From a virus (taxonomy: Duplodnaviria > Caudoviricetes): a stretch of DNA of 64,000 nucleotides. The stretch spans positions 1-64,000 of the IMG/VR virus record IMGVR_UViG_3300049142_000128; one strand, written 5' to 3'. The notes below the pieces were generated by a model that worked only from the letters and a program-made list of their open reading frames with translations, was not told where the DNA came from and ran no database searches. Positions 15,938 to 37,505 of this stretch are shown one piece after another. Both the position numbers and the translations under genes were made by a program. The first letter of the stretch is position 1; each line of letters begins with the position of its first letter.

Positions 15938-15976
15938 CAACCTGGTCTCGCAGGGCGGAACGGCATAGTTCCGGGC

Positions 15977-16357: not shown

Positions 16358-16398
16358 CAACTCTCGAACAGAGGGCACCACGCCCGACGAGGCAGCGA

Positions 16399-17109: not shown

Positions 17110-17164
17110 GCGCTCATCCTCCCGCGGGGCGGCGACAACGACCCCGCTCCCGAGTCACCCCACG

Positions 17165-20205: not shown

Positions 20206-20339
20206 CGGCCGGCGCGGGCACTGGGGTTCGCAACCGCGCCGGCCGGGACATTCGGGGGCCGCCAGATCGGCGACAACCAGGAGTGTTCCGCCGGGACAGC
20301 AGACTGGGAGGGGATGAGATCGGGGCTGTCAAGGGGAGG

Positions 20340-20369
20340 ATTCGGGGAGACTTTGAAGCCTCCCCGAAT
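20340..20369. promoter_or_regulatory. Perfect inverted repeat, candidate operator of the Xre-TPR regulator
   Basis: ATTCGGGGAG-N10-CTCCCCGAAT between divergent operons. Confidence 0.6.
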
Positions 20370-20435
20370 GTCAGCCTGTACCCGTCCAGCTACGCGCTGT
20401 GTGACGATGACGCGCGCCTACTGGGGAGGGCGACC

Positions 20436-21746: not shown

Positions 21747-22630
21747 GCAGCGCACCCGAGCGCGCGGCGCTCGACCTCCTCGCGGCGGCCTGCGCGCAGG
21801 TCGGGCTGGACATGGCGGGAGCCGAGATCATCCGGCTCGGTGAGAACGCGATCTTCCGGCTCCCCGGAGGTGTCGTGACCCGGATCGCGCGGCCCGGCCA
21901 GCTCGCCGCCGCGACGCGAGAGGTTCGGATCGCTCGCTGGTTCGCCGATCAAGGTGTGCGCGCGGTGCGCGCGCTGGACAGCATCGCGCAGCCGCTGAAC
22001 GTCGAGCAGCATCCGGTGACGTTCTGGGAGGAGCTGCCGCCGCACCGGCACGGCACCGTGCTCGAGGTCGCCGACGCCCTGCGCCAGCTGCACGGGCTGC
22101 CGCTCCCCGACTGCGATCTGCTCGGCCCCCTCGACCCGTTCGTCCGGCTGACCGAGCGCATCGAGGGCGGCGCCACGCTGCCCGCCGATGATCGGGCCTG
22201 GCTGCGGCAGCACCTCGCCGCGCTGCGCCAGCGCTACCAGACCCTCCCGCCGGGGCTGCCGCATCGTGTGGTGCACGGCGACGCGTGGGGCGGCAACATC
22301 GTCACCACCCACGACGGCCGGACCCTGCTCCTCGACCTCGAACGCTGCTCCGTCGGGCCGCCCGAGTGGGACCTCGTGTCGATCGCGCTCCGGCGGGGCT
22401 CGTTCGGCTGGCTCTCTGACGCCGACTACCAGGCCTTCGCGAGCCGGTACGGCCACGACGTGACGACGTGGTCTGGCTACGAGCTGCTCCGCGACATCCG
22501 CGAGCTGCGCATGGCGCTCTACCGCGTTCAGCGCGCCGCCGAGCACCCCGGCGAGCGTGGCGAGGCGCAGCTCCGGGTCGCAAGCCTTCGAGGACGGCAC
22601 GGCCCGCGACCGTGGGCATGGGGCCGCTGA
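21743..22630 (+). CDS. APH/choline-kinase-like phosphotransferase
   Basis: Brenner motif VVHGDAWGGN, LLDLE, GPPEWDL; GTGA coupling to the regulator. Confidence 0.85.
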   Translation: MSSAPERAALDLLAAACAQVGLDMAGAEIIRLGENAIFRLPGGVVTRIARPGQLAAATREVRIARWFADQGVRAVRALDSIAQPLNVEQHPVTFWEELPPHRHGTVLEVADALRQLHGLPLPDCDLLGPLDPFVRLTERIEGGATLPADDRAWLRQHLAALRQRYQTLPPGLPHRVVHGDAWGGNIVTTHDGRTLLLDLERCSVGPPEWDLVSIALRRGSFGWLSDADYQAFASRYGHDVTTWSGYELLRDIRELRMALYRVQRAAEHPGERGEAQLRVASLRGRHGPRPWAWGR

Positions 22631-22654
22631 CCGCCCCCGTCTGACCGATTGATC

Positions 22655-22685
22655 GAAGACCCCCGGCCCCGGCCAGGGGGTCTTC
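22655..22685 (+). terminator. Stem-loop terminator after the phosphotransferase
   Basis: GAAGACCCCC...GGGGGTCTTC 10-bp stem. Confidence 0.65.
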
Positions 22686-22709
22686 GTCGTTCCCGAGCCC
22701 GTCGCGAAT

Positions 22710-22761
22710 CTCTTGACGAACGCGACAAGAGTTGTGCTAGTCTCTTGTCAACAAGCAAGAG
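22710..22761 (+). promoter_or_regulatory. Promoter/operator cassette, copy 1
   Basis: TTGACG-N19-TAGTCT overlapped by CTCTTG-N10-CAAGAG and CTCTTG-N8-CAAGAG. Confidence 0.8.
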
Positions 22762-22783
22762 ACACCAACCGAGGGAGCCCCAC

Positions 22784-23086
22784 ATGATCGCCACCGCCAA
22801 CATCGCCCCCATCACCTTCTACGTCGCGTGGGCGCTCGCCCTCGTCGGCCGCACCCAGGCCGGGCAGGCCTTCTACTCGATCAAGGCCAACGGCCGCCCC
22901 ATCGGCCGCATCCAGCAGTGCCGCCGCGCGGACGGCACCGGTGGCACCGGCTTTCTGCTCGAGCTCGACGGCGAGGCGGCCACCATCCGCACTCACCTGC
23001 GCGACTGGCGCGAGGTGCGCGACGTCGTGCGCAACCCGCGCGTGTACGCCTCGGCGAACGCCGGGCGCAGGTGGCGGCTCGTGTAG
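22784..23086 (+). CDS. Hypothetical protein
   Basis: ATG after GAGGGAG, directly downstream of cassette copy 1. Confidence 0.6.
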   Translation: MIATANIAPITFYVAWALALVGRTQAGQAFYSIKANGRPIGRIQQCRRADGTGGTGFLLELDGEAATIRTHLRDWREVRDVVRNPRVYASANAGRRWRLV

Positions 23087-23161
23087 CGCCCCCGGCCCGG
23101 CCCTCACCCGGCCGGGCCTCACGCCCGCCTCCTCCCCACCCACACCGGAAGGACTCCGACC

Positions 23162-23392
23162 ATGACCCGCGCGATCACCCTCACCGACCTGCACTACACG
23201 TTCAAGCCCGTCACCGTGCCCGTCGAGCAGGTCGGCGCCGCCCTGCGCCCGTGGACGGAGCCGTGGGGCGCCCGGTTCGTCGACGTGGCCGAGGAGTTCG
23301 CCGCCGCGGTGTACGCGGGCGACGACGAGGCCGCCGGTGAGCTGGCCGGACATCTCGGCATCGGCTGGGAGGACACGCCGCAGGCCACCTGA
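23162..23392 (+). CDS. Hypothetical protein
   Basis: 76 aa ORF with GGAAGGA RBS. Confidence 0.55.
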   Translation: MTRAITLTDLHYTFKPVTVPVEQVGAALRPWTEPWGARFVDVAEEFAAAVYAGDDEAAGELAGHLGIGWEDTPQAT

Positions 23393-23448
23393 CCCCTCAC
23401 CACCCGGCCGGCCACCGGCCCACCGCTCCCGCTCGAAGGACACCGCCG

Positions 23449-24282
23449 ATGACCGCCGCCCCCGCCGCCCGCACCTTCTACGTCGGCGCCCCCGCACCCA
23501 AGTGGCTCACCCTCACCACCGTCCCCCAGTTCGTCTCCCATACGCGCCTCCGCACCCGCCGCAACCTCCCCCGCGCCGTCGCCCGGTGGGCACTCGACTC
23601 CGGCGGCTTCACCGAGCTCTCCCGCCACGGCCGGTGGACCATCACCCCCGCCGCGTACGCCACTGCCGTGCGCCGCTACCGCGACGAGATCGGCGGCCTC
23701 GACTGGGCCGCCCCGCAGGACTGGATGTGCGAGCCCGAGCAGCTCGACAACACCGGGCTCACCGTCGCCGAGCACCAGCGCCGCACCGTCGACAACTACC
23801 TCGAGCTGCGCGCCATCGCCCCCGATCTGCCGATCATCCCCGTGGTGCAGGGCTGGACCGTGGGCAGCTACCGCCGCTGCGTCGAGCTGTACGCGGCCGC
23901 CGGCGTCGACCTGCGCGCCGAGTCCGTCGTCGGCATCGGCTCCGTCTGCCGCCGGACGAACCCGGTCACGGTCGCGCTCATCGTCGACGAGCTGCGGGCC
24001 CTCGGCCTGTCCGGCCTGCACGGGTTCGGGGTGAAGTCCGACGCCCTCGCCCTGGTCGCGGGGCAGCTGTCCTCGGCCGACTCGCAGGCGTGGTCGAGCG
24101 CCGCACGGGCGCGCCGCGAGCCCTGCTCGGAGGACTCGGCCCGCCGGGACTGCCGCAACTGCATGCACTACGCCCTCGAGTGGGTGGATCAGCTGCGCAC
24201 GGCGATCCGCTGGCACGACGTGCCGACGGCTCTGCTGCCGGCGCCGCGGAACGCTGTCGACGAGCTCACCTTGTCCGCGTAA
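23449..24282 (+). CDS. TGT-fold base-exchange transglycosylase (DpdA-like deazaguanine modification family)
   Basis: TGT catalytic motifs in order: ALDSGGF, APQDWMC, PVVQG, GIGSVC, LHGFGV, SADS. Confidence 0.75.
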   Translation: MTAAPAARTFYVGAPAPKWLTLTTVPQFVSHTRLRTRRNLPRAVARWALDSGGFTELSRHGRWTITPAAYATAVRRYRDEIGGLDWAAPQDWMCEPEQLDNTGLTVAEHQRRTVDNYLELRAIAPDLPIIPVVQGWTVGSYRRCVELYAAAGVDLRAESVVGIGSVCRRTNPVTVALIVDELRALGLSGLHGFGVKSDALALVAGQLSSADSQAWSSAARARREPCSEDSARRDCRNCMHYALEWVDQLRTAIRWHDVPTALLPAPRNAVDELTLSA

Positions 24283-24305
24283 GCCAGCGCACCACCTCCG
24301 GAAGT

Positions 24306-24357
24306 TCCTTGACAGGTACGACAAGAGTTCTGTTAGACTCTTGTCAGCAAGCAAGAG
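24306..24357 (+). promoter_or_regulatory. Promoter/operator cassette, copy 2
   Basis: TTGACA-N19-TAGACT with TCCTTG-N10-CAAGAG and CTCTTG-N8-CAAGAG. Confidence 0.8.
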
Positions 24358-24378
24358 ACCGACCCTGAGGAGCTCCTG

Positions 24379-24954
24379 ATGGCCGCCACCACTGTCGCCC
24401 CCGCCGCCCGCTACATCGGCGTGACCGACGAGTGCGTTGAGTGTCAGCAGTGCGGCAAGGTCGGCCTGCGCTCCACCGTCGTCCTCGGCCTCCTCGACGC
24501 CGACGGCAACGTCGACGAGGTCACCTACTACGGCTCGGACTGCGCCGCCCGCGCCCTCGGTGTCGGCGGCGGTGCCCGCAAGGTCCTCGCCGCCGCCCGC
24601 GAGGCCGACCGCACCACTCGCGCGCTGGCCGCCGACGCCCGCGACCGGGCCGCCCACTACGGCTACGACCCGGTCACCGGCGAGATCACCACCGCCCGCA
24701 GCTTCGCTGAGATCGCCGTCCGCCGCCGCCGGCTCTACGTCGGCTCCCCGTGGGCCGCGGACATGACCTGGCAGGACTGGCAGGACGCGGCGCGCGAGAT
24801 GATCGCCCGCGACGTGGCCGCGGTCGCCGCCGAGCGGCTGCTGGACGGCGTCCGCCCCGCCGCCGCGGCCTCCGCTCCGACCGAGGAGCCGGCCGCGCCG
24901 GTGCTCGTCGACGGCGCCCCGTTCGAGCTCGCCCCGGTGGGCGCCCTGTTCTGA
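24379..24954 (+). CDS. Hypothetical zinc-binding phage protein
   Basis: CVECQQCGK...YYGSDCAARAL; GAGGAG RBS. Confidence 0.65.
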   Translation: MAATTVAPAARYIGVTDECVECQQCGKVGLRSTVVLGLLDADGNVDEVTYYGSDCAARALGVGGGARKVLAAAREADRTTRALAADARDRAAHYGYDPVTGEITTARSFAEIAVRRRRLYVGSPWAADMTWQDWQDAAREMIARDVAAVAAERLLDGVRPAAAASAPTEEPAAPVLVDGAPFELAPVGALF

Positions 24955-24958
24955 AGAT

Positions 24959-25010
24959 CTCTTGACGAGCACGTCAAGAGACGTGCTAGACTCTTGTCAG
25001 CAGTCAAGAG
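24959..25010 (+). promoter_or_regulatory. Promoter/operator cassette, copy 3
   Basis: Perfect CTCTTGACG-AGCA-CGTCAAGAG palindrome over the -35; TAGACT -10; second CTCTTG-N8-CAAGAG. Confidence 0.8.
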
Positions 25011-25021
25011 AAGGGACTACC

Positions 25022-25234
25022 GTGGACAAGGACACGAAGAAGGTCCTCGAGGAGGCCGAACGGCAGGGCTTCACCACCCGCCGAACCTCCCGAGGACACA
25101 TCCAGGTCCGCGACCAGAACGGGCAGATCGTCGCCGTGTTCTCCGGCACGGCGAGCGATCACCGCGCGCTCCGGAACGGGATCGCGCAACTCAAGCGGGC
25201 CGGCTTCGTGTGGCCGAGGAAGGGGAAGGGGTGA
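25022..25234 (+). CDS. HicA-like toxin (dsRBD-fold mRNA interferase)
   Basis: 70 aa basic protein, AERQGF...TSRGH...V.VFSGTASDHRALRNGIAQLKRAG. Confidence 0.6.
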   Translation: MDKDTKKVLEEAERQGFTTRRTSRGHIQVRDQNGQIVAVFSGTASDHRALRNGIAQLKRAGFVWPRKGKG

Positions 25235-25413
25235 GCATGAGCGGCATCCTCCCGCGGCGCTGCATCGATGGCGACGAGGTGGACGCGCACTCGCGCCGCT
25301 CCCGCCGCATGCTCCGCTGGAAGCCCGGCGAGCTGGCCGCGATCAAGCGCCGCACCAACAAGCGCGAGCGCCGCGAGGGCCGCGCCGAGACTCGGAAGGA
25401 GACCGGAGCGTGA
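25231..25413 (+). CDS. Small basic hypothetical protein
   Basis: Coupled by 4-nt overlaps between the toxin-like and antitoxin-like genes. Confidence 0.5.
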   Translation: MSMSGILPRRCIDGDEVDAHSRRSRRMLRWKPGELAAIKRRTNKRERREGRAETRKETGA

Positions 25414-25925
25414 CCACGCACGCCGTGCACCTCACCACCGACGTCGACCACGTCACCGACGACCAGCTCGACGACCTCGTCGACGCCCTCGCCCCCTGGA
25501 GCGGGGTTCCCTCCATGCTCGACGGGCGCCTCTCCGTGCAGCTCACGATCGACGGCCCCGGCATCGGCGAGGTGTCGCTCTTCGCCATGAGCCGCGTGGC
25601 GAACACCATCAGCGCGACGCTCAAGCGCTCTCAGCTCGGCATCACCGGACTCGAGATCCTCGACCAGTACGAGTTCGACCGCCGCCTCGAGGACCGCCCG
25701 CCCCTCGACGACCTCATCCCCACCGCCCAGGCCGCTGAGATCCTCGGCGTCAAGCGGCAGCGCGTCGACCAGCTCGCCAAGTCATTCGAGAACTTCCCCC
25801 GGCCCGTCCGCCGCGGCCGCGTCCTGCTCTGGCCGGTCCCCGCGCTCCGCGAGTTCCTTGCCGAGTGGGACCGCAGCCCTGGCCCGAAGCGGACCGGGCA
25901 CGCGGAGTCCCCCAAGCCGAGCTGA
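25410..25925 (+). CDS. HicB-like antitoxin / AlpA-type HTH DNA-binding protein
   Basis: Acidic alpha/beta N-terminus; C-terminal LIPTAQAAEILGVKRQRVDQLAK..NFPRPV...LW. Confidence 0.6.
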   Translation: MTTHAVHLTTDVDHVTDDQLDDLVDALAPWSGVPSMLDGRLSVQLTIDGPGIGEVSLFAMSRVANTISATLKRSQLGITGLEILDQYEFDRRLEDRPPLDDLIPTAQAAEILGVKRQRVDQLAKSFENFPRPVRRGRVLLWPVPALREFLAEWDRSPGPKRTGHAESPKPS

Positions 25926-25928
25926 CGC

Positions 25929-26468
25929 TCAGGAGAGAGCGGCCGGTAGGAGCAGCGCAGCCGCGAGCACGAGCCCGCGGAAGATCCACTGCTCCGCCGG
26001 CCCGGCCGTCCGAAACCGCAACCAGTACGGCCACACGACCCGTACTCGGAACGGCCAGAACAGGAAGTCGAGGGACGTCTTTGTCGGGACGTCCCCCAGT
26101 ACGCCAGCGAGGTAGCCGAGCGTCCCGAATGCCGCCGTACACACGGCAGCGAGCGGGACGAGCCAGTACGCGGACAGAACGCCGAGCAGTACGCCCCACA
26201 GCAGGGACGCCGCGATCGTGTGGGTGAGCCCGCGGTGCGCCATCCCCACCACGCGTACCGACAGCAGCCGTACCGCCCAACACACCCCCCAGGAGAACGG
26301 CGGCAGGCACTTCGCCGCCGTCGCGTTCGGGTGGTCGACGTCGGGCACGTAGGCCGACGCCGCTCCGACGACCGCGAGCACGGGAACCGCGGTCACCGGG
26401 AGATCGAGCACCGCGGCGGCGCCGAGCGCAGCGACCGCGCCCGTCGCGAAGTGGGTGCGGCCCATCAT
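25929..26468 (-). CDS. Membrane metal-dependent hydrolase (YdjM-like)
   Basis: MMGRTH, PDVDHP, HRGLTHT, LGDVPT motifs; hydrophobic segments. Confidence 0.8.
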   Translation of the reverse strand: MMGRTHFATGAVAALGAAAVLDLPVTAVPVLAVVGAASAYVPDVDHPNATAAKCLPPFSWGVCWAVRLLSVRVVGMAHRGLTHTIAASLLWGVLLGVLSAYWLVPLAAVCTAAFGTLGYLAGVLGDVPTKTSLDFLFWPFRVRVVWPYWLRFRTAGPAEQWIFRGLVLAAALLLPAALS

Positions 26469-26481
26469 CGGGCCTCACCCC

Positions 26482-26627
26482 GCAGGATCGGCAGGGTTCG
26501 CAGGGTTGACGAGGGGGTCACACACCCTGCAGCCGGCGGAACCGCTGGTAAGACCCCCCTTCTGGAATCCTGCCAGGGTCCACGGCAGGGTCCGAACAGG
26601 GTTCGAGCAGGGTCGCGGTGCAGGGTC
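26482..26627 (-). repeat. clt-like locus: 8-bp TraB-recognition-like direct repeats (consensus RACCCTGC on the minus strand)
   Basis: Plus-strand copies (G/C/A)CAGGGT(C/T) at 26573, 26585, 26596, 26607, 26620 (11-13 bp period) and at 26482 (GCAGGATC), 26491, 26500; one inverted copy at 26523. Confidence 0.8.
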
Positions 26628-27804
26628 ATCCGACGCCCACAGCCTCTCGCTCGGGCTCCTTCTCAGCCTCGTCGTCGAGGAGCGCGAGGAGCCGCTCGGC
26701 GACCGTCTGGCGGCAGCCGTAGCGCTTCCGCACCTGATACGCCGTCGGGGGCTCGTCGAGCTCGGCGGCCCACTTCCGGAAGTCGTTCTCGCGGTCTGTG
26801 TCGACCGGGACGAGGCGCCGCGGCGGCGTACCGCCGGGCCGGTCCGCGTTCGGCCGCTGCTCGGTACCCGACTCGGTACGGGCGTCGGTACGGAACGTCG
26901 GGGCGTGCTGCTCGACCGGTGCCTCGTCGGTACGGGGCATCGGTACGGGCGGCGTACCAGCGTGCCCGTTCAGCCAGAACAGCGTCAGCCCGCACGCGTC
27001 CAGCAGGGTGAGGAACCGGCCGAGCGTTCCGTCCCGCCGGGACGCCTGACGGGCAGTACGGCGTGCGAGCCGCTCGGCCTCCGATCCGGACCACGCCGTG
27101 CGCGGGTCGGTGATGCCGTGCGCGATCGAGTAGCGGCGGGCGAGCCAGGTGCGAACCGGGAACGCACGCCAGCGCGCGGACGAGAACAGCGCGCCGGTGT
27201 CATCGACGCGACCGTCCTGCTTGCGCTGCAGGTGGACCGCGCGGCGGGTGTGCATCCCCCACAGCCACGGCTGCAGCGCGGAGAACAGGGCGAACACGAC
27301 GGCGCTGTCGGTCGGTGCCCAGCCGTCGGCGAAATGGGCGTAGTTGATCCCGGCCACCGCCAGCGCGAGCCCGTACGCCGCGACCCGTCGCCGGGATGCG
27401 GTGGCCGTGTCGCCCGCGAGCAGCGCGCCGTGGGCGTACCAGGCGACGGTGTTCGCGATCGACTCGACGGTCGCGGCGAAGCCGACCGCCACGACCGCGC
27501 GCACGACCCACGGCCACGTCGGCTCGGTGAGGTGGGCGAAGGCGTAGCCGACCTGCCCGAACATCGCGAACACGGTCACCGCGGCGAGCGGCGCGACCGG
27601 GCGCAGAGCGGCCACGCGGGCCGAGCAGGCCCTCCACCGCGCCGATCGGGCCGTACGCCGCAGGGCCCGCTGTGCCGCCTTCTCCGCCCGGCGCCGTGCC
27701 CGCGCGGCCGCCTTCTCGGCGCGGCGCTGGCGACGCAGCTCGGCGAGGGTGCGCAGCCAGTCCAGCCGGCCGCCGCCGCGCTCGCGCTCGTCGACGTCGG
27801 TCAC
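26626..27804 (-). CDS. SpdB2-like (DUF2637-type) spread membrane protein
   Basis: N-terminal Arg/Ala coiled coil, about four TM helices, C-terminal HTH-like PTAYQVRKRYGCRQTVAERLL. Confidence 0.7.
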   Translation of the reverse strand: MTDVDERERGGGRLDWLRTLAELRRQRRAEKAAARARRRAEKAAQRALRRTARSARWRACSARVAALRPVAPLAAVTVFAMFGQVGYAFAHLTEPTWPWVVRAVVAVGFAATVESIANTVAWYAHGALLAGDTATASRRRVAAYGLALAVAGINYAHFADGWAPTDSAVVFALFSALQPWLWGMHTRRAVHLQRKQDGRVDDTGALFSSARWRAFPVRTWLARRYSIAHGITDPRTAWSGSEAERLARRTARQASRRDGTLGRFLTLLDACGLTLFWLNGHAGTPPVPMPRTDEAPVEQHAPTFRTDARTESGTEQRPNADRPGGTPPRRLVPVDTDRENDFRKWAAELDEPPTAYQVRKRYGCRQTVAERLLALLDDEAEKEPEREAVGVG

Positions 27805-30035
27805 TCCGCGTCCCTCCGGGCGAGCCGGGCCGCGATCTGCTTGAGCTTCGGCACGTCATAGCCCTGGAGGCGGCCTCGCTGCTCGGTGCGGATCTCCTCG
27901 TCGATCGAGGCCATCTCTCGGCCGAGCTTCCGGGCCGCCTCCTTGAGGTCCGCCTCGGGGGCGTCGGCGACGACGCGGTCGAGGAGGATCGCGAGCTGCC
28001 GCGTCGAGATGAAGTCGCGGGGCGCCTGCTCGTCCCGCAGCAGCGTGATCACGGACTGGAGGGGCTCCGGCAGCGTGATGGCGGGCTTCTTCGCGATCTC
28101 ACGCAGCTCGGCGGCCGCGGCCTCGGCGTCCGGGAACGCCACGGCGCCGGGCTGCTCGTCGGAGATCTTCGGCTGCGCCGGCTGCTCCGGCGTCTGCTGC
28201 TCGGCCGCGGGCGCGGCGCCGGTCTCCTGCTCGATCATCTGCCAGAGCTCCTGATCCATCTCGTCGCCGAGCTGGCCCACCGGCCACTCCAATCCGTCTC
28301 GTGCCGCCGCGGCGGCGAGTTCAGGCAGCCGGGAGGCGTCCCACCGGCCGGTCCACACCTCGCCGAGCTGGTCGGCGATGTCGGCCTCGAGTTCGGGCCG
28401 CCACTGCCCGTTCCGCTCCGCGATCGGGGCGACGAGGTCCTTCGCGAGGTTGTAGGCCTTCGCCGGCATGACCCGCGGCTCGTCGATCGACGGCTGCACG
28501 AGCATCGAGTTGTGCTTGAGTTGCGCCGTGTCGGCGTACTTGACCTTGAGCCCGGGCAGCACCGACTGCCCGTCCTGCGGGGCGAGGGTCTTGAGGCAGA
28601 TCCGGTACGGGGTGTTGCGGGCGATCTCGGCCCCGTAGTCGCCGAGCGCGTTGTAGAGGTCGGTCTGGTTGATCGCCCAGACCGACACCTGCGCGGACCG
28701 GTTCTCCCCGAGGATCATGTGCAGCAGCTGGGAGAAGCCGACGACCTGGCCGGTATGCAGCTCGACGGTCGCGCCGGCGCTGGCCAGCTTCCCGGCCTCC
28801 TCGACGAAGCACACGATCGCTGGCTCCTTCGGCGTCGGCGTGTGGACGTCTTCGTTCGAGAGCCTCGCGTTGCGCTCGCAGACGATCTGGTAGACCGCGG
28901 CGAGCATGAGCAGCGCCTGCCCCGGGTGCTGGCCAGCGACGAAGTCGAGCGCCGGCTTCGGGCACTTGCCCTCGAGCCACGGCTTGATCCATGGGTAGAC
29001 CAGCGGTACGAGCTTGTTCGAGGCGACCACTCCGACGAGGACGTCGCCGCACTCGCCGACCCGGCCGATGATCGAGTTGGTGAGCCGAGACTTCCCGGAG
29101 CCGGTCGCGCCGACGATCTTTCCGTTCGCGCCGCCCTGCTCCCCGCCGAACGTGACGGTGACATGCTGCCCGTCCTCGAACAGGGCGTAGTCGAGCGGGT
29201 CGCCGATCGTGCCGGGCGCCTGTTCGAACGGCTCGTAGTCGATGGACTCGCGGAGGATGTGCTTCGTGCACACGTGGATGAGGTGCACGTGCGCGGCCTC
29301 GGTGGGCTCGACACGGATCGTGCCGGCGCTGACCGTGACGCCCTCGCGGGCGAGGAGCGACGACGCCTTCGTCGTGAGGTCCGGGAGGGCACCCTCGAGG
29401 ATGGCGAACGTGACGGGCTTCGTCTCCTCGATCGGCTCGACGCCGAGCACGTACCCGGCCCGGGTCGGCTGGGTCTCGACGATGCGCAGGGGCAGGTTGG
29501 CGGCTTCGAGGATCTCCGTCCACGTCGCGGTCGCCCGCTCGATGAGTGCCTGCTCGCGCTCCTCGAGCACGCGGGCGGCCGCCTTCGGGGCGGAGGTGCG
29601 CAGCACCCAGTACCAGCCGCCGAACCAGATGAACCCGATGACCAGCATGCCGAGGGCGTGCAGGGGGGACGTCCAGCACGCGTAGACGAGCCAGGCGGAG
29701 GCGGCGCAGCTCGCGATGATGGCGAGGACGCTCATGGACGCGCGCAGCTCGTGCCCGTAGTCGTTCTCCGGGAAGGCGCGGCGGGCCCGGCCGACGCCGA
29801 TCGCGGCGGCGATCGGGGCGAGGAGGGCGAGCGCGATCGGGGGGATCCCGAAGGCCGGGTAGTCGGCCACGAGCGCGAGGCAGTAGCACCACAGCGCGGT
29901 CTCGAGGGGATGCGCCCAGCGCACGTCCGGCTCCCAGGTCGACAGGCGCCGCACCTTCGGCGCTTCCTCCAGCTGCCCCCGCGCGGCCTTGCGCTCCGCC
30001 GGGGAGGACGTCGTAGACGTGGTTGTGCTGCTCAC
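27801..30035 (-). CDS. traB: TraB-type FtsK/SpoIIIE conjugative DNA translocase
   Basis: N-terminal TM helices, Walker A GATGSGKS, Walker B VCFVEEAG, INQTD, C-terminal winged-helix-like domain; GTG start at 30035. Confidence 0.8.
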   Translation of the reverse strand: MSSTTTSTTSSPAERKAARGQLEEAPKVRRLSTWEPDVRWAHPLETALWCYCLALVADYPAFGIPPIALALLAPIAAAIGVGRARRAFPENDYGHELRASMSVLAIIASCAASAWLVYACWTSPLHALGMLVIGFIWFGGWYWVLRTSAPKAAARVLEEREQALIERATATWTEILEAANLPLRIVETQPTRAGYVLGVEPIEETKPVTFAILEGALPDLTTKASSLLAREGVTVSAGTIRVEPTEAAHVHLIHVCTKHILRESIDYEPFEQAPGTIGDPLDYALFEDGQHVTVTFGGEQGGANGKIVGATGSGKSRLTNSIIGRVGECGDVLVGVVASNKLVPLVYPWIKPWLEGKCPKPALDFVAGQHPGQALLMLAAVYQIVCERNARLSNEDVHTPTPKEPAIVCFVEEAGKLASAGATVELHTGQVVGFSQLLHMILGENRSAQVSVWAINQTDLYNALGDYGAEIARNTPYRICLKTLAPQDGQSVLPGLKVKYADTAQLKHNSMLVQPSIDEPRVMPAKAYNLAKDLVAPIAERNGQWRPELEADIADQLGEVWTGRWDASRLPELAAAAARDGLEWPVGQLGDEMDQELWQMIEQETGAAPAAEQQTPEQPAQPKISDEQPGAVAFPDAEAAAAELREIAKKPAITLPEPLQSVITLLRDEQAPRDFISTRQLAILLDRVVADAPEADLKEAARKLGREMASIDEEIRTEQRGRLQGYDVPKLKQIAARLARRDAE

Positions 30036-31801
30036 GGTCGCTCCCGGTTCGCGCTGAGGTCCCACTTCTCCTGGTGAGCCTTCGGGTTCCGGAGCTTCTC
30101 GAGGTCCTCGATGTGGGCGCGCTCGAATGTGGCGCGGGCGTCCTCGCACGGGCCCTTGTAGGCCTGGAACTGCGCTCCGAGCCGAGCGGCGAACTCCCCG
30201 GCCGCGGGGTAGAGGAAGAACTCCTCGGTGTTCCGGGCGCCCTGCGTGGTCAGCATGGCCGAGATCGCGTCGACCAGTCCCGGCATGCCCTCGTACCAGT
30301 CGATGACGCGCAGCGCGTTGTCCGGGGAGTAGGCCTGCGCGGCCTGCGCGCACGCCTCGATGACCGCGGCGAACGGGTTGTGTCCGGACACCGGGGCGGA
30401 GCCGAGCTGGGTGCCGCGGCTGGCGCGAAGGCCGGTCGCGTTGATCTTCGGGCGGCGGCGCATGGGCATCGTGTCTCCGAGGGGTCGTCTCGTTCCGGTG
30501 GTCGCCGGCTTCAGCGCGTTGTCGATCGCCTTCCGCGCGATCGCGGACGTGCCGCGCTGGCCGGTGTGCTGCTGCTTCGTCCTCGGCTTGCGGTGGCGAT
30601 GCGGGCGGGCGGTGTGCCGCCCGGCGAGGTAGCCGAGGATGCGGCGGATCCCGGCGAGGCGCCCGCCGCTCGACCGCTGCCCGGCCGGCAGGCTTCCGCG
30701 CCCTCGGCGCTGACCGCCGCTGCCGGGAAGGGTGCCGCGGCCCGACCGCTGCCCGCCGCTGCCAGGCAGAGTTCCGCGTCCAGTGCGGCCGACGAGCGAC
30801 CTCGGGCGGGTCCCGTTGGCTCGCCATGCCTTCGCGAGGCGCCGGGCACGGGCGAGGTTCCCCAGCCGTCCCGCCGCGCCAGCCAGACCCCCGGAGCCGC
30901 GCCACCCGCGACCCGACCTCGGACGGCTCGACGTCGGGGCGCCGCCGCGCGAGCGCCGTCCCGTGGGGCCCGGGGACGAGGAGCGGCGACGACCTGCGAC
31001 GGGGCGCCCCGAGCCGGTGCGTCCGGGGCGGCCGCCGGTGAGCAGCCGCCGCAGCGCCGCGCCAGGCCCGGAGCGCGACCCGCCGTTGCGGCTTCCGGCC
31101 CCGCCCCCGCGGCCTCCGCCGCTCGTGCGCCCGGCCTTCCCGACAGGGCGCCCCTTGCCCGCGGTGCTGCCGCCGCCGCGGCCCAAGCCGCGCAGCCCGC
31201 CCAGCAGGCCGCGGCCCTTCCCCAGGCCACCGCCTCGCGACAGGCCGCCGCGCCCGTTCGACCCGGCCCCGGCCGAGCGCCCTGCGCCGGCGGAGCGGCC
31301 CGCACCGGTGGATCGCCCCGCCCCGGTACCGGTACGCGGCGAGGCGCCCTTCCTCGAGGCGCCGCCGCGGAGCCCGAGTCCGCCCAACGCGCGGCCGAGC
31401 CCGAGCCCACCACCTCGGCGCCCTGAGCCGGGCGCGCCGCCGCGCGAGTTCGCGGTTCCGCGACGAGCGGCCGCACCCTGGCCGAGCCCGAGGCTCGGAA
31501 TCCGGGCCGAGAGCCCACCGCGCCCGGCCTGTCGGGCGGCGCGGTGAGCACGACGCAGCTCCCGCTCTGCGACGCGGAGCCGGTTCTTCGCCTCCTTCGC
31601 GGCCAGCTCGTGCGGAGAGCGGTTGCGGTCGCGCATCGCGGCGACGCCTGCGCCAGCCGCGGCCACACCCGCGGCAGCGAGGAGACCGACCGGGCCGAAC
31701 ACGGCACCGGTCGACGCAACGGCAGACGCGGCGGCCGGAGTGGCGAGCTCCCAGGCCTGCCGCGTCATCAGCGGGGGCGGCTTCTCGACGTCGCTCATCA
31801 C
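30032..31801 (-). CDS. TraA-like transfer protein with long Gly/Arg-rich linker
   Basis: N-terminal TM segment, G/R low-complexity middle, C-terminal FERAHIEDLEKLRNPKAHQEKWD; coupled to traB. Confidence 0.55.
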   Translation of the reverse strand: MMSDVEKPPPLMTRQAWELATPAAASAVASTGAVFGPVGLLAAAGVAAAGAGVAAMRDRNRSPHELAAKEAKNRLRVAERELRRAHRAARQAGRGGLSARIPSLGLGQGAAARRGTANSRGGAPGSGRRGGGLGLGRALGGLGLRGGASRKGASPRTGTGAGRSTGAGRSAGAGRSAGAGSNGRGGLSRGGGLGKGRGLLGGLRGLGRGGGSTAGKGRPVGKAGRTSGGGRGGGAGSRNGGSRSGPGAALRRLLTGGRPGRTGSGRPVAGRRRSSSPGPTGRRSRGGAPTSSRPRSGRGWRGSGGLAGAAGRLGNLARARRLAKAWRANGTRPRSLVGRTGRGTLPGSGGQRSGRGTLPGSGGQRRGRGSLPAGQRSSGGRLAGIRRILGYLAGRHTARPHRHRKPRTKQQHTGQRGTSAIARKAIDNALKPATTGTRRPLGDTMPMRRRPKINATGLRASRGTQLGSAPVSGHNPFAAVIEACAQAAQAYSPDNALRVIDWYEGMPGLVDAISAMLTTQGARNTEEFFLYPAAGEFAARLGAQFQAYKGPCEDARATFERAHIEDLEKLRNPKAHQEKWDLSANRERP

Positions 31802-32013
31802 GCCGCCACCGAGTTGAGGGCGGACACGACGCCGTCCCAGGCGCCTGAGATCAGGCCCTGGGCGCCGCTGTAGATCGCATCACCGGCGTCGGTGTCAGCG
31901 GCGCCGACACCGATGCAGAAGATCGAGAGGATGGTGACCCACGCCCAGCCGCGCCAGAGGCCGACCGCTGCGATGATCGCGAAGACGATGATCCACGGGA
32001 GGCCGGCCATCAC
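31798..32013 (-). CDS. Small hydrophobic transfer/spread-like membrane protein
   Basis: 71 aa with two hydrophobic helices; coupled to the traA-like gene. Confidence 0.6.
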   Translation of the reverse strand: MMAGLPWIIVFAIIAAVGLWRGWAWVTILSIFCIGVGAADTDAGDAIYSGAQGLISGAWDGVVSALNSVAA

Positions 32014-32044
32014 ACGGCCCTACGCGGGAGGAGCAGAAAGCCGG

Positions 32045-32281
32045 CTACTGCCGCTCGAGGTAGAGCTTCGCCCACCGCCGGGCGTTGGACTGTGCGATGC
32101 CGGTCTGCGCTTCGATATCTCGCCAGGACAGCCCGCGGGCCCGCATGGCGACCATGAGCGCGCCCCGAGTGGACATGAGTGCCGAGTTGTCCGCGACGCC
32201 CCGTGCACGCTCGATCAACTCGGGCAACGGCACCTCCGCCATCGGATCGGGCGGCGCACCTTCCTCGGGGTCGGTCGGCAT
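32045..32281 (-). CDS. Small HTH regulator heading the transfer operon
   Basis: MRARGLSWRDIEAQTGIAQSNARRWA. Confidence 0.65.
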   Translation of the reverse strand: MPTDPEEGAPPDPMAEVPLPELIERARGVADNSALMSTRGALMVAMRARGLSWRDIEAQTGIAQSNARRWAKLYLERQ

Positions 32282-32327
32282 GATCGAGGACCCTAGCTGG
32301 CGCCCGGGTGGTCTCCATGACGCACGA

Positions 32328-32347
32328 GTGTGCCATTTTTGGCACAC
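32328..32347. promoter_or_regulatory. Perfect palindrome, candidate transfer-operon operator
   Basis: GTGTGCCA-TTTT-TGGCACAC, 47 bp upstream of the HTH start codon. Confidence 0.6.
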
Positions 32348-32618
32348 CAGCGGCAAACGACCCCCGCGACCACCGCTCAGCGGCTCAGGGTGACGTGGGT
32401 CCGCACTCGGCCAGCCGCACGGCCTCGAGGCGGCCAGCGCGATGAACCCCGGACGAAGGAGCCCGGCGGTGCACTGGTTGTGAGCCTTGGAGCACCGCCG
32501 GGCCTGGGCGGACAAGCCGCCCACCTGTCGACCGCTCAACGCCATGCCCTCGTTAACAGGAGTCGGCGTGATCCACTCCATAGGGGACACCCGTAACGTC
32601 GCTGAGGCGCTGCAGAGC

Positions 32619-32651
32619 CGCCCCGCCAGGCTGCATCGGCCAGGCGGGGCG
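32619..32651 (-). terminator. Hairpin after the holin gene
   Basis: CGCCCCGCC...GGCGGGGCG 9-bp stem. Confidence 0.45.
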
Positions 32652-32667
32652 CCCACGCGATCGATGT

Positions 32668-32898
32668 CTACCGGGCGCCGGGCAGGAAGCTCGTCGTCCC
32701 CTTGTCCCCGGCCGGGGCGGACACGATCGACGTCAGCAGCGAGAGCGCCGCGGCGCCGGCAGCGAGGCCGAACGTCGGGCCGAGGTCGACCTCGATGATG
32801 TTGAAGCCCTCGTCGGCACCCCAGAGCAGCAGGAGCGCCTGGGCAGCGGACTTGACGGCCCGGTCGACAGCACCGGTCCAGAAGGCGGCGGTGAGCAT
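32668..32898 (-). CDS. Holin (r1t-like)
   Basis: FWTGAVDRAVKSAAQA...AALSLLTSIVS; two TM helices; follows the lysin. Confidence 0.85.
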   Translation of the reverse strand: MLTAAFWTGAVDRAVKSAAQALLLLWGADEGFNIIEVDLGPTFGLAAGAAALSLLTSIVSAPAGDKGTTSFLPGAR

Positions 32899-32983
32899 GG
32901 CGGGGTTCCCTTCGTTGTGGCCCGGGTCGTCGACCCGGTCGTGCGCGCCCATCAGGCCGGTCCTTCGGGCGGGATCTGGGAGG

Positions 32984-33805
32984 TCATCGCGGTTGCCCCT
33001 CGAGCGCGATGACCGCGCCGTCGGGGGCGTCGTAGACGACGTTGACCTGCGTGGTTCCGTCCGGTGCCTCGCGCCAGTCGCGGGACGACCAGCCCTCGCG
33101 GAAGATCACCGAGAGCCGGTGGTCGGCGATGCCGCCGCCGTCGGACTGGAAGAAGACGTGCGCCTTCGCTCCGGCCGGGCCTTCGGCGACGAGGGACACC
33201 CAGGCGCGGGCAAGGACCGCGCTGGCGCGGCCGACGGGGAGGATGCGGCGGAACGAGCCCGAGCCGCGGACGGGGATGTTGTCGAGCATGTCGAGGTCCT
33301 TCGGGTGAGCGGCGGGAGCGACAGGAGCAGCGGGAGCTGAGGGCGTCCGCGCGTAGGCCGGGCGGGCGAAGCCGACGATGTTGGCGAGGCGTCGCTTCCG
33401 GGCGACCATGCCGCCGTTGCGCTGGTCCCCGGATGCGGTTCCGGCGGTGTTGCCCTCGATCGTGACCAGCGTTCCGCCGGGCTCGACGCCCTCGACCAGG
33501 CCGACGTGGTTGACCGGGTTCTTGTTGCCGGGGAACTTGAAGAACACCAGGTCACCGGGCTGCGGGTTGCGGGTGTGCCACTGCCCCCGGCTCTGGTACC
33601 AGTCCCTCATCAGCACGGTGCTCGCCGTCTTCGGGACGAGTGGGGCGCAGCCGGCCTCGGTGAGCACCCACCACACGAACTGGGCGCACCAGGCGACGCC
33701 GTCCCAGCCGTAGGCGCGGCCGTACTTCTGCCGGTTGCTGCCGTGCGGCTGCTCGACGGTGCCGAGCTCGCCGCGGGCGACCTCGAGGACGCGGGCGACG
33801 GTCAC
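32984..33805 (-). CDS. Endolysin with CHAP domain
   Basis: AWCAQFVWW (catalytic Cys), HVGLVE, TIEGNT. Confidence 0.9.
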   Translation of the reverse strand: MTVARVLEVARGELGTVEQPHGSNRQKYGRAYGWDGVAWCAQFVWWVLTEAGCAPLVPKTASTVLMRDWYQSRGQWHTRNPQPGDLVFFKFPGNKNPVNHVGLVEGVEPGGTLVTIEGNTAGTASGDQRNGGMVARKRRLANIVGFARPAYARTPSAPAAPVAPAAHPKDLDMLDNIPVRGSGSFRRILPVGRASAVLARAWVSLVAEGPAGAKAHVFFQSDGGGIADHRLSVIFREGWSSRDWREAPDGTTQVNVVYDAPDGAVIALEGQPR

Positions 33806-34197
33806 ACCGTCTCCCCGAACGGCCGCCAGCCCGGGTCCTGCGGAGGCTGGTGCAGCACCTCGTCGACCGGCCCGATCTTCGGGGTGTTGACGATGTCGAG
33901 TTCGCGGTCGTACGCGGTGAGGTCGTCCTGCCCGAGCTCGGTGGGCGGGACGCGGGGGCCGGTGGTGTCGCCGCCGCGAGCTACGGCGGGCTGGATCCTC
34001 GTCGCGGCGACGTCACGGTCCGGGTGTGGTGCGGCGCCGAGCAGCTGCCGCAGCGGGTCGGCCGGCAACGGGTCTGGGACGTCGACGCCGGTCTCGACGG
34101 CCAGCTCGGTGTAGATCGGCACGTCGGAGCGGCGCACCCGCTCCCGAGCCTCGTCTTCGGGCTCGTGGGGGGCGGTGTCACCGAGGGGATCGGACAT
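33802..34197 (-). CDS. Hypothetical protein
   Basis: 131 aa acidic ORF coupled to the lysin. Confidence 0.5.
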   Translation of the reverse strand: MSDPLGDTAPHEPEDEARERVRRSDVPIYTELAVETGVDVPDPLPADPLRQLLGAAPHPDRDVAATRIQPAVARGGDTTGPRVPPTELGQDDLTAYDRELDIVNTPKIGPVDEVLHQPPQDPGWRPFGETV

Positions 34198-34462
34198 GTC
34201 GGCGCACCTCCCTCGCGTTGCTCCGCCGCTGGAACGGGATGACCAGCGGCCGGTAGCGGCGCGGCGGAGCAGGCAGAGGCCGGATCTGGCGCTGCTGCGC
34301 GTCGAAGCAGGCGGCCCAGTCGTCGGGCAGCCGCGGCGCGGCCCATGGCTGGATGAGCCGGAGGACGCGAAGCCCCTCCTCGACGCTGGCGCGCGGTCGA
34401 TCGGCGGGGGCCGGTGGACGGCGCAGGCCAGGCGTGGTCCGGCCGGGGAACACGCGGGTCAT
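34178..34462 (-). CDS. Possible small hypothetical protein
   Basis: ATG overlaps the sortase stop; weak composition. Confidence 0.3.
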   Translation of the reverse strand: MTRVFPGRTTPGLRRPPAPADRPRASVEEGLRVLRLIQPWAAPRLPDDWAACFDAQQRQIRPLPAPPRRYRPLVIPFQRRSNAREVRRHVRSPR

Positions 34463-35076
34463 GGCAGCTCTCCGGCGAGGCGGGCGTAGACGACCCAGTT
34501 GTCGCGGTAGTGGCCTTCTCCGTGGTCGAACTCGCCGCCGCAGGTGATGAGCCGCAGCTCCGGGCCCGTGGTGTTGCCGTATACGCGGGAGGTCGGGAAC
34601 GCGTCCTTCGGGTAGCGCTCGAGGCGGTCGACGAGGAACCGCAGCGTCGAGGCGCCGTCGCGCGTCACGAACACCTCGTCGCCGGGGCGCAGCTCGTGCA
34701 GCCGGTAGAAGATCCCGGGCTGGCCCTTGCGGCCGCCGATCTCGCCGTCGACGTGCCCCGCGATGACGGCCGGCCCGACCTCGCCGGGCAGAACCTCGTC
34801 GCCCTCGAACGCCGGGTCCGGGCCGGCGTAGTAGCCGGCCTGCATCGGCTGGTCGGTGGGGGTTGGGACGAGCTCGCCGGTGGCCGGGTCGAGCCCGAGC
34901 GGCACCAGCGTCGAGCGGGCGTCGATGGCGGGGATCGTGATCTCCGTCGGGACGACGGCCGGCACCGGGATGGTGGCGGTCGGAGCCCCGGACGACTGCG
35001 CGGGCGGCTCGTCGGGCGCGATGGCGCACCCGACGAGCAGCACGGCGCCCGCGAGCAGGGTGACGAGCCGGATCAA
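34459..35076 (-). CDS. Class F sortase
   Basis: N-terminal anchor, PGEVGPAVIAGHVD, LRLITCGG.FD..GHYRDNWVVYA (His/Cys/Arg triad). Confidence 0.9.
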   Translation of the reverse strand: MIRLVTLLAGAVLLVGCAIAPDEPPAQSSGAPTATIPVPAVVPTEITIPAIDARSTLVPLGLDPATGELVPTPTDQPMQAGYYAGPDPAFEGDEVLPGEVGPAVIAGHVDGEIGGRKGQPGIFYRLHELRPGDEVFVTRDGASTLRFLVDRLERYPKDAFPTSRVYGNTTGPELRLITCGGEFDHGEGHYRDNWVVYARLAGELP

Positions 35077-35819
35077 GCTGGGCCGCCGCCGGTGTCGACC
35101 CCACCGGTGGGCGGGGTGCCGATCTGGTCGAAGTCGTCGTCATCGTCGTCGGCCGGGGCGGTGTCCTGCCCGGGCTCGCAGGCGACCCGGTCGCCGTCGC
35201 TGTCGATGCCGTGCGGGTCCTCTCCCGGGGTCTCGTCGAGCACGTCCTGCGCGCTCCGGCCGTCGCGGAGTGGGAAGTCGATGCAGTTGAAGTCCGGGTC
35301 GGGGTTCGGCTTCGGGTCGGGCTCGTCGCAGGCGCCGACCTGTACGCGCAGGGCGGCGTCGAGCGTGGCCTGGGCCTTGGCGAGCACGTCCTGGGCGGCC
35401 TTGAGCGCGGTCGCGGCGGTGTCGTGCACCGTGGTCAGCTCGAGCACCTTGACGATGGCGGCGATGCGCGCGTTGACCGATGCCAGCAGCTCGATGTTGC
35501 CGATGACGTCCGGGTCGTCGCGGCGGTCCTCCAGCCGGGCCCGCTCCTGGGCGGTCGGCGCGGCGAGGTTGTCGCCGAGCTTGTTGTAGGCGGCGACCGC
35601 CGTGTCAAGGTCGGCCTTCGCCCGCTTCGCCTTCTGCTCGAGGTCGGACGGGACCTTCGCCTCGTCGCGGGCGGCGAGCGCGACCGCGACGGCGGCCTTG
35701 GCCTCGATGCACGCCCTGCTGTCGGGGCCGGTGTCGTCCTGCGCGAGCGCGGCGGTGGTCGAGCCGAGCAGCCCGATCACCACGGCCGCCGCGATCGAGA
35801 CCGCGTGGGTGAACTTCAC
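35073..35819 (-). CDS. Secreted sortase-substrate-like protein with Excalibur Ca-binding domain
   Basis: Signal peptide, coiled coil, DFNCIDF...DPHGIDSDGDRVACE, terminal PTGGVDTGGG motif. Confidence 0.8.
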   Translation of the reverse strand: MKFTHAVSIAAAVVIGLLGSTTAALAQDDTGPDSRACIEAKAAVAVALAARDEAKVPSDLEQKAKRAKADLDTAVAAYNKLGDNLAAPTAQERARLEDRRDDPDVIGNIELLASVNARIAAIVKVLELTTVHDTAATALKAAQDVLAKAQATLDAALRVQVGACDEPDPKPNPDPDFNCIDFPLRDGRSAQDVLDETPGEDPHGIDSDGDRVACEPGQDTAPADDDDDDFDQIGTPPTGGVDTGGGPA

Positions 35820-36004
35820 GGGGTGGTCCTCCGTGGGATGAGGCGGGCCAGGGCCCGACGGATCCGGCCCGGCTCACGCACGGGCCGGTAGTCCGGGCAG
35901 ACGGCGCGGCCGCATCGCGAGCAGTCGTCGCCCTCCCGGTAGTGCTCGTGCGCGCCCGCGTTGTGGCCGCACCGGCAGAGCGGCCAGGCGTCGGGGCGGG
36001 TCAC
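35816..36004 (-). CDS. Small zinc-finger-like protein
   Basis: CRCGH...HEH...CSRC...C. Confidence 0.55.
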   Translation of the reverse strand: MTRPDAWPLCRCGHNAGAHEHYREGDDCSRCGRAVCPDYRPVREPGRIRRALARLIPRRTTP

Positions 36005-36052
36005 GACGCGGACCGTGCAGCCTGGCGGGCGTGCTGGGAGGGCAGTCGCGTG

Positions 36053-37504: not shown

Positions 37505-37505
37505 G

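Follow-up and report, generated by a model that had tools for sequence, protein, structure and literature searches.

The window analysed here comprises the first 64 kb of IMG/VR record IMGVR_UViG_3300049142_000128, a 77,127-bp soil-metagenome virus contig (72.7% G+C, classed as linear, CheckV completeness 89%), and our subject is a minus-strand gene module in it that includes a membrane-anchored FtsK/TraB-superfamily ATPase of 744 amino acids. Read along the minus strand, the order is holin, a 386-nt spacer, a helix-turn-helix (HTH) gene, genes for 71-aa and 589-aa proteins, the ATPase gene, a gene for a 392-aa protein, a repeat array (array B) and a YdjM-family gene (Table 1). An earlier note on this DNA had described these features as a Streptomyces-type conjugation module directly downstream of the holin. 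All of the features are present on the minus strand where that note placed them and the order stands, although the 386-nt spacer (32282-32667), which is non-coding, separates the holin from the HTH gene. The description of the genes as mostly translationally coupled holds as well, with 4-bp start/stop overlaps at 31798-31801, 30032-30035 and 27801-27804 joining the 71-aa, 589-aa, ATPase and 392-aa genes; the HTH gene is set apart by 31 nt. Third-position G+C agrees with the frames of the module genes; at the N-terminus of the 589-aa open reading frame (ORF) the frame plot is ambiguous, and conservation in the relative L005 confirms the frame.

Table 1. Features of the module and of the surrounding phage genome, with window coordinates.
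Feature	Position	Strand	Basis and remarks
Perfect inverted repeat GTGTGCCA-N4-TGGCACAC	32328..32347	minus	Read directly; 8-bp arms; 47 nt upstream of HTH gene
78-aa HTH protein, candidate regulator	32045..32281 (ATG at 32281)	minus	Pfam DUF6362 E 6.6e-6 and HTH_28 0.0035, both below cut-offs
71-aa membrane protein	31798..32013	minus	One strong transmembrane segment; stop overlaps start of 589-aa gene
589-aa Gly/Arg-rich membrane protein	30032..31801	minus	Composition, hydropathy, conservation
744-aa membrane-anchored FtsK/TraB-superfamily ATPase	27801..30035	minus	AlphaFold2 model, Foldseek, VIA, family scans
392-aa polytopic membrane protein	26626..27804	minus	Sequence, hydropathy
Array A	~26870..26955	minus	Four CCGTACCGA copies plus GGTACC variants; linker-coding part of 392-aa gene
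Array B, candidate clt	26482..26627	minus	146 bp; eight GACCCTGC-like copies plus one inverted
YdjM-family membrane-bound metal-dependent hydrolase	25929..26468	minus	Pfam YdjM E 2.5e-19
Holin	32668-32952	minus	PHROG
Endolysin	32984-33805	minus	PHROG
J-like tail protein	42820-47175	minus	PHROG
Dit	47994-48851	minus	PHROG
Tape measure	48848-51769	minus	PHROG
Major head protein	56695-58509	minus	PHROG
Tyrosine integrase, sole one	12927-14219		

The module lies inside a bona fide phage genome with capsid, tape-measure, tail and lysis genes. PHROG scans identify a tailed phage whose particle and lysis genes are on the minus strand, and the earlier claim that capsid, tail, lysin and holin are encoded on the same contiguous element as the module is upheld both by these scans and by Logan contigs of the matching sequencing run, a single DNA run (X1) of a soil metagenome that is probably the source sample. 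The Logan contigs tile 22000-38000 at an even depth of 185-230, and a chimeric join at the module is unlikely because single contigs (22000-27405 and 28481-34777) bridge both of its junctions at that depth. The Logan assembly is independent, but the sample is probably the same as that of the record. Short "joints" within these contigs, with sides of at most 23 letters, were treated as spurious. This is a high depth for a phage from soil and points to enrichment, a bloom or active replication in the sample; the sequencing-run search listed no RNA runs holding the record.

The Walker A sequence GATGSGKS described in the earlier note lies at residues 309-316 of the ATPase, and G312, G314, K315, E412 and E413 are invariant or nearly so. 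In an AlphaFold2 (AF2) model built from a 20-sequence alignment (predicted local distance difference test score, pLDDT, of 83), transmembrane (TM) helices at ~38-178 are followed by an alpha/beta motor (183-580), a disordered linker (587-635) and a C-terminal domain (637-743), with one ATPase domain in the protein. The N-terminal membrane anchor comprises modelled helices at 38-58, 66-87, 95-122 and 128-178 and hydropathy segments at 53-71, 102-120 and 127-145. The C-terminal domain has the topology H-S-H-H-hairpin-H (pLDDT 86-92 in the full-length model) and, in this single AF2 model, looks like a winged helix. Foldseek placed FtsK motor domains first (E 3e-13, ~430 columns), then the conjugation coupling protein TcpA, then EccC, and structural alignment with VIA, in a comparison covering residues 241-563 of the 744-aa model, gave a tie among EccC (Z 24.2 over 261 residues), TcpA (23.9 over 321) and FtsK (23.5 over 339).

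Among curated families, the best for the 744-aa protein is TraB (NCBIfam NF041214, plasmid_TraB), matched with 31.1 bits (E 9e-8) and short of the cut-off of 800 bits. That model is narrow, and failing its cut-off tells little about function: in a control, the experimentally proven pIJ101 Tra gave no NCBIfam TraB match at E 0.01 or better, and Tra proteins are therefore too diverse for the model to decide functional class. Pfam PF01580 (FtsK_SpoIIIE) is matched with 15.8 bits (E 0.0095), and with 17.6 bits in another scan, under its gathering score of 24 bits, compared with 38.8 bits for pIJ101 Tra, and phrog_31069, "FtsK/SpoIIIE-like protein", is matched with E 2e-21. Fifteen of 20 family members touch EccCa and 12 touch TraB; in a set of ten remoter relatives TraB is the best family for seven, with long alignments, and two have short EccCa matches only. 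The profile of the ATPase family (A1; E-values at Z = 1e6) is strong on PIS 136 gp41 (E 1e-146) and the ATPase of Mwe-JY05 (E 4e-118) and weak on pIJ101 Tra (E 3.5e-4) and E. coli FtsK (E 0.1), with Galactica gp99 at E 4e-7 and the ATPase of plasmid pADI95-16c at E 2e-6. Because the profile is strong on phage proteins and weak on pIJ101 Tra and E. coli FtsK, we place the ATPase in a separate clade of the FtsK/TraB superfamily, carried mainly by phages, on which we found no published study. A library at 50% identity holds 1,228 representatives that match at E <1e-3, with 224 at <1e-30. Of the relationships that the earlier note had wanted compared (TraB, chromosomal FtsK and EccC), an FtsK-type motor with alpha and beta domains is what emerged, and close TraB kinship is not borne out by the score on the TraB model or the E-value for pIJ101 Tra.

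These comparisons also bear on the possibility of an EccC/EssC-like type VII motor, with which the phage would export a protein such as the 589-aa partner of the ATPase. The EccCa matches of the 15 family members, weak, local and far under the cut-off as they are (best E 8e-9), and the position of T. curvata EccC as the top VIA match favour such a motor, yet EccC matches span the core ATPase fold only (~100 profile positions or 260 residues), whereas the alignments to FtsK and TcpA run over 320-430 residues and take in the alpha domain. EccC and EssC have three tandem FtsK-like ATPase domains and ESX partners, whereas the window ATPase has one domain, and Pfam and NCBIfam scans of the module genes found no ESX partner or other ESX core families. 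Among PDB sequences the A1 profile matches only FtsK, not EccC, and DNA repeat arrays co-occur with the ATPase gene. We regard a protein-exporting motor as extremely unlikely.

The 589-aa protein has an N-terminal TM helix, ~345 aa of Gly/Arg-rich low complexity (29% G and 19% R in its composition) and a ~130-aa helical C-domain ending in WDLSANR. L005 has a counterpart directly upstream of its ATPase in which both ends of the protein are conserved, and in an IMG/VR provirus (L003) the C-domain is a stand-alone 113-aa ORF abutting the ATPase. The C-domain recurs in Galactica gp98 (E 8e-13), which has the same architecture and the WDLSANR C-end motif, and in a 580-aa protein directly upstream of the pADI95-16c ATPase (26% identity over 136 aa, E 2e-8); the plasmid link comes from a targeted pairwise test alone, tblastn of the C-domain against all plasmids having given no match. 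The protein has no Pfam, PHROG or NCBIfam family, and a Protein Atlas search with the C-domain returned unnamed actinobacterial clusters only. The name "TraA-like" given to it previously is unsupported; it is a partner that is conserved upstream of ATPases of this type, both in phages and in at least one plasmid. Plasmid pADI95-16c (L009; NZ_CP033584.1), a 10.5-kb Streptomyces plasmid, encodes at 460-6332 a 360-aa polytopic protein with an HTH-like C-end, then a membrane protein of the DUF3307 family, and after it the Ala/Gly/Arg-rich partner of 580 aa and the ATPase, a layout that parallels the phage module gene for gene, with sequence similarity in the last two genes only. The partner and ATPase gene pair is common to the phage module and this small plasmid. 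Streptomyces plasmids of ~87-99 kb match the ATPase weakly, and in a check for pZL12-like phage-plasmids among them, one record, NZ_CP108353, had no Phage_capsid or Phage_portal Pfam match.

The 392-aa protein begins with a basic coiled-coil N-terminus (residues 1-60); TM segments come next, and a linker of low complexity joins them to an HTH-like domain at the C-terminus. It had been called a four-TM protein: two strong segments are found at a hydropathy threshold of 1.5, and about two weaker ones may be read from the sequence. The domain order is that of SpdB2, namely coiled coil, TM segments and C-terminal domain (PMC4447253), so the label "SpdB2-like" stands as regards architecture and coupling to the ATPase gene (the 4-bp overlap) and falls as regards homology to plasmid SpdB, the family profile giving E 5.9 on pIJ101 SpdB. 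A homologue in Pseudonocardia zijingensis (62% identity) has HTH_28/HTH_23 at its C-end, and the profile finds Galactica gp96 (1.7e-13) and PIS136_045 (gp45; 5e-7); the PIS 136 homologue alone touches DUF2637, at E 0.002 and below the cut-off, and tblastn of the 392-aa protein against plasmids gave one weak match (E 4e-3). Of the smaller proteins, the 71-aa membrane protein is 56% identical in L005/L006 and 33% in L004 and has no family match in Pfam, PHROG or NCBIfam, and the YdjM homologue is 51% identical in L005/L006 at the equivalent position, with another downstream in L003. The 78-aa HTH protein likewise has an orthologue in L005/L006 (51% identity) at the equivalent position.

Upstream of the HTH gene, the inverted repeat at 32328-32347 is a candidate operator or promoter region for the module, and L005 has a similar repeat, AGTGT-GGA-ACACT, upstream of its own HTH gene. 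Scans for promoters and terminators returned nothing usable. In the spacer as a whole, third-position G+C in the HTH frame stays raised (0.62-0.88); the ORF extended into it reads like non-protein sequence and is without conservation in L005.

The 8-bp repeat array of the earlier note is confirmed as array B, which fills the 157-bp spacer between the 392-aa and YdjM genes: its first bases are the stop codon of the former, and 14 nt separate its end from the start of the latter. A first cluster of five GACCCTGC-like copies, at spacings of 13, 11, 11 and 12 nt, is followed by an inverted copy and then by three more copies. The 77-kb record contains 22 CAGGGT hexamers, seven of them within 160 bp, and 200 Markov simulations reached a maximum of 1-3 per 160 bp. 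L005, at ~55% protein identity, keeps the motif and the two-cluster layout at the equivalent position (9263-9430), with a central GACCCTG-G-CAGGGTC palindrome. A candidate actinobacterial SOS box in array B (TCGAAC-N3-GTTCGG) was rejected by eye, being wrongly spaced and absent from L005. Published clt loci have a comparable anatomy: that of pWTY27 consists of four 7-bp repeats plus inverted repeats, lies partly inside traA and is bound by the translocase, that of pJV1 has nine 9-bp repeats, and that of pSVH1 has 8-bp repeats, which TraB reads with helix 3 of its winged helix (PMC3583192). By this likeness to the loci of pWTY27, pJV1 and pSVH1 (PMC3583192; PMC4447253), array B is a candidate clt.

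A second array, array A, is new relative to the earlier note; its copies lie in two reading frames of the 392-aa gene. L005 has CCGTAC five times at the equivalent place in all three frames, and L003 has 17 sense-strand CCGTAC copies, many as the palindromic CCGTACGG, in the equivalent gene. In Mwe-JY05 there are 12 copies of CCGGACC in the ATPase linker and an inverted set upstream, in PIS 136 dozens of GGAACC in gp45 and a 1.3-kb unannotated spacer, and in Galactica six of ACCCCGG in gp96. A dense, element-specific array thus lies next to or inside the module in every relative examined (five phage lineages). The maximum of exact 7-mers per 200 bp is 9-12 in PIS 136, Mwe-JY05 and L003, compared with at most 4 in simulations, and Galactica has six motif copies per 200 bp, a count made without simulation. 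Because the motifs within coding linkers use all three frames (1/4/1 in L005, 3/2/1 in Galactica, 5/5/4 in Mwe-JY05), they are DNA-level elements and not peptide repeats. Two further repeat-rich stretches were seen: the PIS 136 spacer (5552-6853) is packed with TGGAACCA copies in both orientations, and upstream of the module in L005 a 561-aa DUF6745 gene (755-2440) has ~15 GCGGTCG copies within 200 bp, which may be a coding repeat or a DNA-level array.

The arrays need not be sites for the ATPase. Array B could instead be an operator or promoter of the YdjM gene, or a binding array, with a regulatory or centromere-like role, for the 78-aa HTH protein or for the HTH tail of the 392-aa protein, and array A a by-product of the low-complexity linker. 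This agrees with the location of array B directly upstream of the YdjM start, with the two further HTH domains encoded in the module, and with L003, which has the window's CCGTAC though its ATPase C-terminal domain is 24% identical, as would fit a different reader protein. Against it, linker motifs in all three frames at several loci argue for selection as DNA, arrays with differing motifs accompany the ATPase in five of five phage lineages, and the window and L005, with a common array B motif, have a nearly identical presumed recognition helix, AARKLGREM. We judge it somewhat unlikely that the arrays serve such other readers.

For each gene of the module, the nearest relatives are those of phages. 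The closest kin of the ATPase are in PIS 136 (L001; JX006077.1), Mwe-JY05 (L002; PP395638.1) and provirus L003, and more distantly in the Streptomyces Hiyaaviruses. A search for related phages with like synteny, suggested in the earlier note, was successful as regards partner genes and arrays, which recur, and unsuccessful as regards order and strand, which differ (the PIS 136 membrane protein is divergent). PIS 136, Mwe-JY05 and the Hiyaaviruses (Galactica gp96-gp99) have homologous ATPases, in part 392-aa-type and 589-aa-type proteins, and dense repeat arrays, while their gene order, strand and capsid modules differ from those of the window phage. The head protein of the window is unmatched in L003 and Mwe-JY05 and 28% identical in PIS 136, and the L005 module begins at a divergent promoter region and not behind a holin; the module behaves as a cassette. 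Records of PIS 136, Mwe-JY05 and Galactica label these genes FtsK-like, membrane or hypothetical only, and in the literature we found no functional study of the FtsK-like modules of PIS 136, Mwe-JY05 or the Hiyaaviruses. PIS 136 also has a second, motor-only paralogue, PIS_039 (11609-12643; 344 aa, A1 profile E 7e-58), just downstream of the full-length ATPase. The 19.5 kb fetched from "Microcystis phage Mwe-JY05" is 74% G+C and closely related to the actinophage-type translocase, so the stated host may be wrong; the G+C content of Microcystis is ~42%.

[quoted passage not shown] The ATPase is remote from plasmid Tra and close to proteins of isolated phages, and the module is therefore an old phage module and not a recent graft. 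That note's companion statement, that the module is not an independent AICE, is supported: there is a single tyrosine integrase, no AICE-type Rep was seen among the genes scanned, base composition is uniform across the module, and a search for flanking direct repeats found only chance GC-rich matches. An AICE is defined as a compact Int, Rep (RepSA, RepAM or Prim-Pol) and Tra element without virion genes (PMC3218068), and the window element carries genes for a head, a tail and lysis.

The arrangement of the genes, the fold class of the motor, non-random conserved arrays, conservation of the module in other phages and the phage context are established. By analogy with plasmid systems, we propose that the module is a phage operon for a TraB/clt-like, sequence-directed pump for double-stranded DNA (dsDNA), which would carry phage DNA through septa or from one hypha to another and be controlled by an HTH protein of its own, a proposal whose chances we put at about even. 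The 744-aa protein would form a membrane-anchored FtsK-like ring. Docking on arrays B and A would fall either to the winged-helix-like domain at its C-terminus or to the HTH tail of its 392-aa partner. The motor would then pump phage DNA, circular or prophage-linked, through septa or between hyphae in contact, without capsid or lysis, while the 71-aa, 589-aa and 392-aa membrane proteins and the YdjM-like hydrolase may form or anchor the envelope passage, and the 78-aa HTH protein and the upstream palindrome may control the operon apart from the late genes. The host is probably a mycelial Pseudonocardiaceae-type actinomycete, because the homologue of the 392-aa protein is 62% identical in Pseudonocardia and PIS 136 infects Saccharomonospora.

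Several observations weigh against this proposal. The sequence kinship of the ATPase to proven Tra proteins is remote, EccC is level with FtsK and TcpA in structure comparison, and three-quarters of the family members have their weak EccCa matches. For the C-terminal domains no winged-HTH family match was found in Pfam at E 10, hhalign matched their family alignment neither to the C-terminus of pIJ101 Tra nor to the gamma domain of E. coli FtsK, and the domain modelled by itself, from a 3-sequence alignment, was poor (pLDDT 59.6). The 392-aa family has no detectable homology to pIJ101 SpdB, the regulator of the module is not GntR-type, array B could be an operator, and the probable mycelial host is deduced from relatives.

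The closest known parallel is the TraB/clt/Spd system of Streptomyces conjugative plasmids and AICEs (pSVH1, pIJ101, pJV1 and pWTY27), which is alike in a single membrane-anchored FtsK-like motor with a C-terminal DNA-recognition domain (putative in the phage protein), in local 7-9-bp direct repeats and inverted repeats beside or inside transfer genes, and in coupled polytopic membrane partners, one with the SpdB2 domain order, with an HTH regulator upstream. The regulator in those systems is a GntR-type TraR/KorA, whereas that of the phage module is the 78-aa HTH protein; the window element is a capsid-forming phage without an AICE or plasmid Rep, and sequence similarity is remote. Chromosomal FtsK/SpoIIIE provides the best structural match to the motor (alpha and beta domains) and is alike in its plan of membrane anchor, linker and (putatively, in the phage protein) C-terminal DNA reading, but FtsK gamma has no sequence match in the phage protein, the phage repeats are clustered at one locus and not dispersed or polar, and the phage motor has dedicated membrane partners.

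The likeness to FtsK and SpoIIIE, which themselves act at septa, raises the alternative that the pump serves the phage within one host individual, taking replicating or excised phage genomes through sporulation or vegetative septa into every compartment and spore, or in DNA handling during the lytic cycle, and does not transfer DNA between individuals. Streptomyces phage papers suggest links of role-less FtsK-like genes to replication or development, and homologues also occur in phages without an established lifestyle, such as PIS 136. The repeats, however, sit in one local array, as in clt, instead of being dispersed or skewed like KOPS or SRS (three of the eight exact RACCCTGC copies lie outside array B), and the set of membrane partners resembles a transfer and spread apparatus. 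Restriction to one individual is in our view unlikely, and it largely overlaps the proposed conjugation-like pump because intramycelial spread belongs to plasmid conjugation.

The rest of the genome is that of a temperate phage with an internal integrase. Because the integrase is internal and host DNA is not evident, the contig is probably in the phage and not the prophage permutation. Its left arm codes for SSB, a PDDEXK exonuclease and a large helicase. A 24-kb query found no match among phages by megablast, and scans of genome contigs found no relative. Between integrase and module, 14933-19221 encodes an ATP-dependent DNA ligase and, after it, a pair made up of an MvdD-type ATP-grasp protein and a PCMT methyltransferase; provirus L003, too, has a PCMT homologue (37% identity) close to its translocase module. 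At 20145-22630, within the accessory region, are an NsdA-family TPR regulator (NCBIfam E 1.5e-91) and a protein with an APH-type phosphotransferase domain, genes of host-development and resistance type, respectively. Three copies of a 55-nt cassette (TTGAC...CTCTTG...CAAGAG palindromes) stand ahead of plus-strand genes at 22708-25011, among them a DpdA-like gene (23449-24282; Pfam DpdA E 3.5e-75). ARAGORN reported a tRNA-Gly (anticodon ACC) at 59612-59685 on the plus strand, within the minus-strand ORF 59492-60130, possibly a false positive.

The position of the module, between the lysis cassette and the integrase-proximal accessory region, is a frequent site of prophage-expressed genes. Together with its own regulatory spacer and the PHROGs class of the nearest phage family ("moron, auxiliary metabolic gene and host takeover"), this would suit a prophage-expressed membrane system of defence or exclusion, in which the ATPase expels or blocks incoming phage or plasmid DNA. 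Exclusion of foreign DNA leaves the element-specific arrays on the phage's own DNA unexplained, and we consider such a role very unlikely.

The idea of phage-borne transfer genes is not new. As described in two sources, pZL12 is a Streptomyces plasmid-phage with conjugal transfer genes, one major tra gene with two neighbouring ones (PMC3583192, PMC4487206), that also codes for phage particle proteins (PMC4487206). Going by these descriptions, it resembles the window phage as a virion-forming actinomycete element with transfer genes and differs in being kept as a ParAB plasmid, whereas the window phage has a tyrosine integrase and no partition genes among the genes scanned. Thoma et al. 2015 suggested a role in the spread of phage DNA for the Spd homologues of phiC31 and VWB, and Streptomyces phage papers routinely note FtsK-like genes without a tested role. 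The pZL12 precedent and the Spd and FtsK homologues already reported on actinophages temper the surprise of the present module.

Homologous modules are present in isolated phages, among them Hiyaavirus phages for which Streptomyces lividans JI 1326 was the isolation host. Measuring conjugal transfer is routine in S. lividans (PMC3583192), and the hypothesis is therefore directly testable. More broadly, it is possible, if doubtful, that integrase-bearing temperate phages of mycelial actinomycetes commonly own a second, capsid-free route, in which a phage-specific clade of TraB-like pumps reads element-specific repeats, placed partly in the linker-coding DNA of the module's own genes and in all three frames, and moves the phage genome between hyphae or compartments, bypassing receptors and lysis. 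If the proposed pump is real, a tailed phage could spread through and between mycelia as naked dsDNA, by a route immune to receptor-level resistance and without killing the donor. This would blur the boundary between phage, plasmid and AICE, and would bear on the spread of lysogeny in soil actinomycetes and on gene flow among antibiotic producers.

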